Source: a virus
Lineage: Duplodnaviria; Heunggongvirae; Uroviricota; Caudoviricetes
Length of the DNA: 4,062 nt
Strand: one strand, 5' to 3'
Virus record (IMG/VR): IMGVR_UViG_2671180852_000012
Part shown: positions 1,074 through 2,123 of the stretch, piece by piece
Layout: every line of letters starts with the position of its first letter
Position numbering within the stretch: the stretch's first letter is position 1
Notes under the pieces: generated by a model
The model's database searches: none
Seen by the model: the letters and a program-made list of their open reading frames with translations, nothing else
What the model was told of the DNA's origin: nothing
Made by a program: the position numbers and the translations under genes

Positions 1074-2123
1074 ATGCTTAATACTGTAAAAATATCCAGT
1101 TGTGAGTTAATCAACGCCGACTGCCTGGAATTTATCCGGTCGTTACCCGAAAATTCTGTTGACCTGATAGTCACGGACCCGCCGTACTTTAAAGTGAAGC
1201 CTGAGGGCTGGGATAACCAGTGGAAGGGCGACGATGATTACCTGAAGTGGCTGGACCAGTGTCTGGCGCAGTTCTGGCGGGTGCTGAAACCTGCCGGAAG
1301 TCTTTACCTGTTCTGTGGTCATCGCCTGGCATCTGATATCGAAATCATGATGCGTGAACGCTTCAGTGTGCTGAACCATATTATCTGGGCGAAGCCGTCC
1401 GGACGCTGGAACGGATGCAACAAGGAAAGCCTGCGGGCGTATTTCCCCGCCACAGAGCGCATTCTGTTCGCGGAACATTATCAGGGGCCGTATCGTCCGA
1501 AAGATGCCGGGTATGCGGCGAAGGGCAGTGCACTGAAACAGCATGTGATGGCCCCGCTGATTTCTTACTTTCGTGATGCGCGCGCTGCCCTGGGGATAAC
1601 GGCAAAACAGATTGCAGATGCCACAGGAAAGAAAAACATGGTGTCGCACTGGTTCAGTGCCAGTCAGTGGCAGCTACCGAACGAAAGCGATTATCTGAAA
1701 TTACAGTCGCTGTTTGCCCGGGTGGCAGAAGAGAAACATCAGCGCGGTGAACTGGAAAAGCCCCACCACCAGCTGGTGGATACGTATACGTCACTGAACC
1801 GGCAGTATGTGGAGCTGCAGAGTGAATATAAGCATCTGCGGCGGTATTTTGGTGTGACGGCGCAGGTGCCGTACACGGATGTGTGGACACATAAACCGGT
1901 GCAGTTCTATCCCGGGAAACATCCGTGCGAAAAACCGGCAGAAATGCTGCAGCAGATAATCAGCGCAAGCAGTCGTCCGGGTGACCTGGTTGCAGATTTT
2001 TTTATGGGCTCAGGTTCAACGGTAAAAGCTGCACTGGCGCTCGGGCGTCGTGCGATTGGCGTTGAACTGGAGACCGGACGTTTTGAGCAGACAGTCAGGG
2101 AAGTTCAGGATTTAATCGTTTGA
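1074..2123 (+). CDS. DNA methyltransferase, beta-class, predicted N6-adenine specific; apparently orphan
   Basis: 349-aa ORF. Catalytic motif IV DPPY (nt 1176-1187) is near the N-terminus; HPCEKP (CcrM/YhdJ-like HPxxKP) followed by AdoMet-binding FFMGSGST is near the C-terminus. That order is the beta-class signature. No restriction endonuclease ORF is adjacent within the window. Confidence 0.9.
   Translation: MLNTVKISSCELINADCLEFIRSLPENSVDLIVTDPPYFKVKPEGWDNQWKGDDDYLKWLDQCLAQFWRVLKPAGSLYLFCGHRLASDIEIMMRERFSVLNHIIWAKPSGRWNGCNKESLRAYFPATERILFAEHYQGPYRPKDAGYAAKGSALKQHVMAPLISYFRDARAALGITAKQIADATGKKNMVSHWFSASQWQLPNESDYLKLQSLFARVAEEKHQRGELEKPHHQLVDTYTSLNRQYVELQSEYKHLRRYFGVTAQVPYTDVWTHKPVQFYPGKHPCEKPAEMLQQIISASSRPGDLVADFFMGSGSTVKAALALGRRAIGVELETGRFEQTVREVQDLIV

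Follow-up and report, generated by a model that had tools for sequence, protein, structure and literature searches.

The stretch of DNA analyzed here (hereafter the window) is 4,062 nucleotides (nt) long and belongs to IMG/VR virus record IMGVR_UViG_2671180852_000012, which is classified in the Caudoviricetes. It carries an intact gene for an N6-adenine DNA methyltransferase of the M.EcoGI type (positions 1074–2123, plus strand), which follows the 3′ part of a gene for the late antiterminator Q and is immediately preceded by a conserved, structured 5′ leader (942–1073, plus strand). The methyltransferase is encoded by a single open reading frame (ORF) in the ORF list, with an ATG start and a length of 349 amino acids (aa). 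Its product matches the Pfam family PF01555 (N6_N4_Mtase) over profile positions 1–219 of 221, and its score of 152.4 bits (E 2.3e-44) far exceeds the cut-off of 26.7. The ORF and its three motifs lie where the original prediction had placed them: DPPY at aa 35–38 (nt 1176–1187), HPCEKP at aa 283–288 (nt 1920–1937), and FMGSG, of the form FxGxG, at aa 310–314 (nt 2001–2015). The order of these elements, from the catalytic DPPY through a central, target-recognition region to the S-adenosylmethionine (AdoMet) motif FMGSG, identifies the protein as a member of the beta class, as had been predicted. The nearest solved structures (M.RsrI, CcrM, M.MboIIA, and DpnA) are all beta-class enzymes, and HPCEKP aligns with the HPTQKP of solved members of this class. 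The earlier description of the enzyme as CcrM/YhdJ-like holds at the level of the class, and indeed the Pfam family, the motif order, and the orphan state are shared with both proteins, but it does not hold at the level of the equivalog, given that the NCBIfam scores for YhdJ (NF008572, 112.8 against a cut-off of 292) and CcrM (NF050803, 72.3 against 830) are far too low. Furthermore, YhdJ (ATGCAT) and CcrM (GANTC) are site-specific and chromosomal, and their central regions differ from that of the window enzyme.

This enzyme is already known: it is a cloned, characterized, and surveyed M.EcoGI-type methyltransferase of lambdoid prophages, real but ordinary. At least 1,000 contigs encode exactly this protein, and 8,369 blocks of an assembly collection's index contain it. 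It is identical to WP_000935516.1 of Escherichia coli fS10a and represents the commonest allele of a family whose genes are found in 1,796 of 5,426 complete E. coli genomes, or about a third. It is also identical at 348 of 349 residues to WP_000935536.1, one of two copies in E. coli O104:H4 strain C227-11, with residue 74 (alanine here, valine in C227-11) as the sole difference. Exactly two places in C227-11 match the gene; we read one of these copies, and the second was not located. Because the copy that we read differs from published M.EcoGII at about 17 sites, and because M.EcoGI and M.EcoGII of this same strain are reported to be identical at 333 of 349 positions, 16 residues apart (PMC5778455), it would by elimination be M.EcoGI. 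To published M.EcoGII the window enzyme is identical at no fewer than 331 of 349 residues (~95%), which is a lower bound because the M.EcoGII sequence was machine-read from a supplementary table (PMC11551740) with some reading errors and none of six corrected variants has an exact match in the collection. In addition, 347 of 349 residues are shared with the enzyme of a prophage inserted at ompW in the ST131 strain EC958, which is the sole methyltransferase of its type in that prophage as read. We regard the prophage as Phi4 and the enzyme as M.EcoMV, which is reported to be 99% identical to M.EcoGI (PMC4659465).

The published properties of these homologs bear directly on the target of the window enzyme. 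M.EcoGII is a prophage-borne protein of 349 aa, similar to the methylase of phage 1720a-02, which methylates adenine in any context and modifies up to 99% of deoxyadenosine; its overexpression slows cell growth, and it is not expressed in its native strain (PMC5778455). M.EcoGI is likewise reported to be non-specific (Fang et al. 2012, as cited in PMC4659465), and M.EcoMV is reported to be transcribed at a level well below that of dam and to have no detectable motif (Forde et al. 2015, PMC4659465). The original prediction had regarded the target motif as unknown, and this statement can now be replaced. Given the near-identity to M.EcoGI and M.EcoGII, the expected target of the window enzyme is any adenine.

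No restriction gene was found in the window, whether in the ORF list or by Pfam and other profile searches. In the prophage of fS10a, the most similar one from a complete genome, none is annotated within 12 kb on either side of the methyltransferase gene, and none is annotated in the narrower flanks that were read in EC958, C227-11, ten other contigs, an Stx2a phage, and phage 1720a-02, or in the related loci of Klebsiella and Salmonella. The only nuclease-like gene in these flanks encodes an HNH protein beside the terminase. Thus, the methyltransferase is an orphan, as had been proposed, and a cognate restriction gene just beyond the ends of the window, which would have made it part of a complete system, is not annotated at the corresponding places in its relatives.

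The position of the gene suggests how it is expressed. The 3′ part of Q occupies positions 1–452 of the plus strand, the gene being cut by the left end of the window (listed ORF 51–452, stop codon 450–452); it matches PF03589 (Antiterm) with an E value of 8.5e-32, and the corresponding region of E. coli 042, with 99.4% DNA identity, is labeled as an antitermination protein. Within the last 35 nt of Q we read, directly from the sequence, a putative late promoter pR′ (417–444, plus strand) that consists of a -35 element TTGATT (417–422), a 16-nt spacer, and an extended -10 element TGgTAAATT (436–444). Its hexamers match at 8 of 12 positions, which falls below the threshold of the promoter scan and explains why the scan did not report it. 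The prophages of fS10a and JJ1886 retain the block TTGATTTTTCCnGAATCTGTGGTAAATT even though their Q genes are only ~90% identical, and we infer that it is pR′. A tR′-like intrinsic terminator identified by the terminator scan (492–517, plus strand; -11.2 kcal/mol, z -2.7) follows about 65 nt past the inferred start site. Four types of phage have conserved both its hairpin and its T-run, right after which homology stops. As a side observation, this promoter and terminator (417–517) would yield an RNA of ~65 nt in the lysogen, an analog of which is StxS, the small RNA (sRNA) derived from the terminated late transcript of Stx phages (PMC7547250).

The terminator scan also identified a second hairpin with a T-run (910–934, plus strand), which overlaps the stop codon of a truncated upstream ORF discussed below and is made up of 910–927 plus TTTTTTATTT (-8.9 kcal/mol, z -2.5). 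It is conserved in E. coli-type loci, and its T-run has been lost in Salmonella. The methyltransferase gene had been described as lying directly behind a strong terminator; the hairpin is real, but it is 146 nt away from the ATG and only moderately strong. No sigma-70-like promoter was detected by the promoter scan on the plus strand between 517 and 1073. A dedicated methyltransferase promoter was rejected, as the conserved TGTG(G/A)AAAT that the leader has at its 5′ edge is also a poor -10 element. In fS10a, EC958, and C227-11 the gene order is Q, small ORF, methyltransferase, tRNAs, DUF3927, iraM, nanS-p, holin, and lysozyme, with the terminase further downstream. In the Stx2a phage it is Q, small ORF, methyltransferase, tRNAs, stx2AB, iraM, and nanS-p. 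In Klebsiella and Salmonella, too, the methyltransferase gene closely follows the Q region, at a distance of no more than 2.3 kb; a holin gene lies after it in Klebsiella, and none is annotated in the 4 kb that were read in Salmonella. The gene therefore shares the strand of the late genes and comes after Q, the putative pR′, and tR′, with no promoter reported by the scan in between, and lysis and structural genes follow it in its relatives, all of which agrees with the placement that was originally predicted. The accompanying suggestion of silence in the lysogen and late expression is in line with the low or absent expression reported for close homologs in lysogens (PMC5778455; PMC4659465). 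Of the readings of the locus, an orphan late-operon gene that Q releases from silence has the best support, with its dependence on Q deduced from position.

The original prediction missed three features of the locus, namely the structured leader, the truncated ORF upstream of it, and a duplicated tRNA module. The leader matches a covariance model at 942–1079 with 119.9 bits. This model was built from a MAFFT alignment of 48 species-level sequences, and structure prediction with RNAalifold yields a three-way junction that is closed by helix P0 (946–950/1018–1022, TGGGC/GCCCA) and comprises the long hairpin P1 (951–962/970–981) and the short hairpin P2 (985–988/1006–1009). The junction is followed in the leader structure by a further hairpin, P3 (1023–1029/1035–1041). 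All four helices are on the plus strand. Nucleotides in the junction and the loops are nearly invariant, and the ~130-nt leader is about as conserved across genera as the coding sequence of the methyltransferase. We find that the model matches each of the 58 selected Enterobacterales loci with an E value below 1e-6, that every match stops where the methyltransferase gene begins, and that controls without this gene are not matched. A comparison of the leader with Rfam 15 returned nothing at the gathering score; with permissive filters the best hits (E 0.12–10) were to unrelated families. As far as we could determine, the leader has not been described.

Compensatory changes support the structure. 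In the MAFFT alignment (n = 48), which was not fitted to the model, 95.4% of the structure is paired, and 12 of 37 pairs are compensatory, compared with 3.5 ± 1.2 in shuffled alignments (none of 500 reached the observed value) and 2–9 in slid controls. In the model-fitted alignment the corresponding values are 15 of 33 pairs, 4.9 ± 1.5 in shuffles, and 5–7 in slid controls. One pair of P2 occurs 26 times as CG, 13 times as UA, 10 times as AU, and 7 times as UG, and in the divergent leaders of Serratia and Chania, which are among the 58 matched, the sequence of P1 is wholly different yet still paired. The frequent G-U pairs argue for an RNA of the sense strand rather than a DNA palindrome: ~8% of paired cells are G-U, which would be A-C mismatches on the other strand, and we therefore rejected both a palindrome and an antisense RNA. 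A small ORF within the leader (945–1046) was likewise discarded, its frame being broken by one-nucleotide indels and an early stop in other genera.

There is no Shine-Dalgarno sequence ahead of the methyltransferase ATG. Instead, a conserved TGATC (1068–1072) abuts the ATG, and in Serratia it overlaps it. The conserved GGUCA of the P2 loop can pair with this UGAUC at the start codon; this pairing (P5) and a helix P4 are compatible with the sequences, but no compensatory change backs either, and neither was retained. As a separate observation, the conserved TGATC contains a GATC, that is, a Dam site (1069–1072), and there are only three GATC sequences in the whole window. Judging from sequence comparison, the leader is most likely a post-transcriptional control element, probably acting on translation initiation. 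A leader that works like a riboswitch or binds a protein would be expected to have such a layout, and its effector could be S-adenosylmethionine or S-adenosylhomocysteine, the winged-helix protein encoded upstream, or the enzyme itself. We tentatively suggest, with somewhat less than even confidence, that it represents an undescribed cis-regulatory RNA that gates the translation of a toxic, non-specific methyltransferase.

The leader of the window itself is unusual. In the 5′ arm of P1, G replaces T at 957 and at 961, which creates a run of eight G residues and two G-A mismatches. None of the 1,778 E. coli genomes that carry the leader shares these changes, which could be true mutations or sequencing errors. 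They make the predicted fold less stable, at -53.8 instead of -63.4 kcal/mol, and P1 still folds, with two 1 × 1 internal loops.

A second peculiarity of the window concerns the 65-aa winged-helix-like ORF that normally precedes the methyltransferase gene. Only its last 13 codons (..DYQFGCYRRLPQ*) remain, at 884–923 on the plus strand, and homology to fS10a begins exactly at 884, that is, the junction 883/884 falls inside this ORF. The full ORF matches phrog_331, with sub-threshold matches to TrmB, MarR, and DprA_WH; it is 63–69 aa long and usually lies ~150 nt 5′ of the methyltransferase gene (full-length copies include L001:12646-12843, L003:2843-3040, L020:3660-3851, and L021:3659-3868). 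It is complete in 72 of 73 IMG/VR loci, and the single exception (L079) is a scaffold join across N. Among 77 species-level loci it is detectable in 53.

Phage Mu offers an analogy to such an arrangement, in that its com-mom module places a toxic DNA-modifying enzyme on a late transcript and has a gene for a small nucleic-acid-binding protein and a translation-limiting structured leader before it. The likeness goes no further than analogy, as the sequences are unrelated: Mom does not count among the methyltransferases, Com is built as a zinc finger whereas the small ORF here resembles a winged helix, and this ORF is dispensable in ~30% of species-level loci. We accordingly rejected the winged-helix ORF as an obligatory, Com-like partner, as it is missing from 24 of the 77 species-level loci, most of which still have the leader. 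Those that keep the leader without the ORF include Kosakonia, Trabulsiella, and Enterobacter, and their upstream neighbors are unrelated. The winged-helix ORF is thus a frequent but non-obligatory partner.

Based on these findings, we consider it likely that the gene encodes an orphan, non-specific beta-class methyltransferase of the M.EcoGI/M.EcoGII type, carried by a lambdoid prophage, placed in its late operon, and probably controlled through its leader as well. The enzyme would transfer a methyl group from S-adenosylmethionine to the N6 of adenine in essentially any sequence context. Its gene would lie in the first part of the late operon, with Q, a constitutive pR′-like promoter, tR′, a tRNA module, and the second hairpin upstream of it. 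In the lysogen, transcription from pR′ would stop at tR′, and the toxic enzyme would be kept off. Upon induction, RNA polymerase modified by Q would read through both terminators, and the enzyme would be produced at the time of phage DNA replication and packaging, giving progeny DNA with dense N6-methyladenine (m6A). Such modification blocks type I, II, and III restriction enzymes that have adenine in their sites, and an anti-restriction role has indeed been inferred for close homologs (PMC5778455; PMC4659465). The leader, having no Shine-Dalgarno sequence, would add a layer of post-transcriptional control, probably of translation initiation.

Several points weigh against this hypothesis. Dense m6A would expose DNA to methyladenine-dependent (type IV) restriction, and the protection is thus not universal. 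The assignment of pR′ relies on a weak hexamer match together with the extended -10 element. In a targeted literature search we found no experiment on Q-dependent transcription of this gene and no report of m6A-dense DNA in the particles of such a phage. Finally, the copy in the window is atypical, with its truncated winged-helix ORF and its two unique substitutions in P1, and it may therefore be misregulated or inert.

The last of these points leads to the strongest of the alternatives, namely that the gene is here carried along without function, as a passenger, by a prophage that is rearranged or defective, or that the arrangement is an assembly chimera. The locus is indeed a mosaic, as judged by comparison with its relatives. 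A direct repeat of 368 bp, with 4 mismatches between its copies, brackets the methyltransferase gene. Copy 1 of this tRNA module (516–883, plus strand) contains a tRNA with anticodon CAT (555–630), which is annotated as tRNA-Ile in RefSeq relatives, and a tRNA-Arg(TCT) (731–807), as found by ARAGORN and the Rfam tRNA model. Copy 2 (2134–2501, plus strand) contains the ARAGORN tRNAs 2173–2248 and 2349–2425 and occupies the usual place, as the methyltransferase gene is followed by tRNAs in fS10a, JJ1886, EC958, C227-11, and the Stx2a phages. Copy 1 adjoins Q, an arrangement shared with E. coli 042, in which tRNAs come straight after Q and there is no methyltransferase gene. Positions 884–4062 are 99.5% identical to fS10a and positions 1–517 only 89.6%, whereas positions 400–884 are 99.4% identical to E. 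coli 042. Recombination between the two repeats would recreate the methyltransferase-less form of E. coli 042 and phage mEp460.

None of the 5,426 complete E. coli genomes has the junction 883/884, and three contig collections (IMG/VR, GTDB representative genomes, and JGI metagenomes) yielded no exact match to it either. Together with the truncation of the usual upstream ORF, the run of eight G residues formed in P1, and the fact that the sole comparable exception among the 73 IMG/VR loci is a scaffold gap, this favors a passenger or a chimera. However, the methyltransferase gene is uninterrupted and represents the commonest allele, there is no N in the window, the upstream ORF is also missing from the 24 species-level loci mentioned above, and P1 still folds. 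We therefore regard this alternative as unlikely, although it deserves more weight than any other.

Less probable still, in our view, is that the main role of the enzyme is something other than protection from restriction, such as hypermethylation of the host chromosome in the lytic phase, disturbance of Dam-dependent processes, stimulation of recombination, or methylation of RNA. In its favor, M.EcoGII acts in vitro on single-stranded DNA, DNA:RNA hybrids, and RNA; a different prophage methyltransferase acts on 16S rRNA once it is bound to a partner (PMC10810198); and a 2025 paper ties m6A to RecA-mediated recombination. On the other hand, the activity of M.EcoGII on RNA is ~100-fold below its activity on DNA (supplementary table of PMC11551740), and late timing suits the modification of progeny DNA. 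The rRNA enzyme (Gong et al. 2023) was also considered and rejected, given that it belongs to another family, MT-A70, and is encoded in the early region.

The view of the original prediction, that this is a sequence-specific orphan methyltransferase with a motif yet to be found, is very improbable. Most PF01555 enzymes, including M.RsrI, CcrM, M.MboIIA, and YhdJ, are site-specific, and the NCBI name of the protein is "site-specific DNA-methyltransferase," but this name is a generic family label, and M.EcoGI (by way of the C227-11 copy) and M.EcoGII, to which the window enzyme is nearly identical, are both reported to be non-specific. That the gene supplies the modification activity of a restriction-modification system, with a nuclease that could in principle lie beyond a window of only 4 kb, can practically be dismissed, as the related flanks, up to 12 kb per side in fS10a and narrower in the other loci, contain Q, RusA, DUF968, tRNA, iraM, nanS-p, lysis, and terminase genes and no restriction gene, and a non-specific methylase has no meaningful cognate nuclease.

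The hypothesis of a leader-controlled, non-specific late-operon methyltransferase is best seen against its closest known counterparts. The window enzyme shares its length of 349 aa and its beta-class motif order with M.EcoGI and M.EcoGII (Murray et al. 2018, PMC5778455), and it differs from M.EcoGII at ~17 residues, mostly within aa 148–278. The locus occupies the same prophage slot as in C227-11, with Q, the small ORF, the methyltransferase, tRNAs, iraM, nanS-p, and lysis genes, except that the window has a tRNA module in place of most of the small ORF. From 884 on, the gene order is also that of the M.EcoMV locus (EC958 Phi4, as taken here); unlike the window, EC958 keeps the full 65-aa upstream ORF and has a single tRNA module. 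The "DNA methylase" of some Stx2a phages, 1720a-02, and P27 is ~95–96% identical at the protein level and is preceded by a leader that scores 117–124 bits, and in the Stx2a phages and 1720a-02 it is likewise the first large gene after Q. In contrast to the window, these alleles encode 352 aa with another C-terminal tail and are followed by three tRNAs and toxin genes.

The remainder of the window is occupied by other prophage features. Downstream of the second tRNA module are an ORF matching phrog_2873 (2536–2889, plus strand), in which AUA, AGA, and AGG codons amount to 7.6 per 100 compared with 1.4 in the methyltransferase gene, and a TciB-like/DUF3927 peptide (2925–3056, plus strand). The STnc100 sRNA (RF02076) was found by Rfam at 3122–3311 on the plus strand with 132 bits, and it ends in the strongest terminator of the window (3281–3302, -20.3 kcal/mol). 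STnc100 is a known family of prophage-encoded sRNAs and has reportedly been linked to the PasD sRNAs in recent work. The gene for the anti-adapter IraM (3337–3672) is on the minus strand, and the window ends within a gene for a sialate esterase of the nanS-p type, of which it contains the DUF1737 N-terminus (3933–4062, plus strand). Among the related loci, a Klebsiella michiganensis prophage has AcrVA2-like and Cas1 Pfam matches on the opposite strand between the methyltransferase and holin genes (L020:6143-7808), and such a pair is not what one would expect among the late genes of a prophage.

As for the enzyme, it brings no novelty, since it belongs to a characterized family of which M.EcoGII is on the market. 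The modest interest of the locus lies instead in its conserved leader and its unusual local rearrangement, both of which bear on how the enzyme is controlled. The question of value is how lambdoid phages silence, and then in lytic growth dose, an enzyme that methylates every adenine, and in some Stx2a phages the late transcript that carries the methyltransferase gene also carries stx2. Testable points of entry into the control of this toxic enzyme are offered by the leader, by both terminators, and by the winged-helix ORF that most but not all loci have, and the variant in the window, which with its P1 mismatches and the loss of the winged-helix gene could be a natural regulatory mutant, offers a convenient natural comparison.

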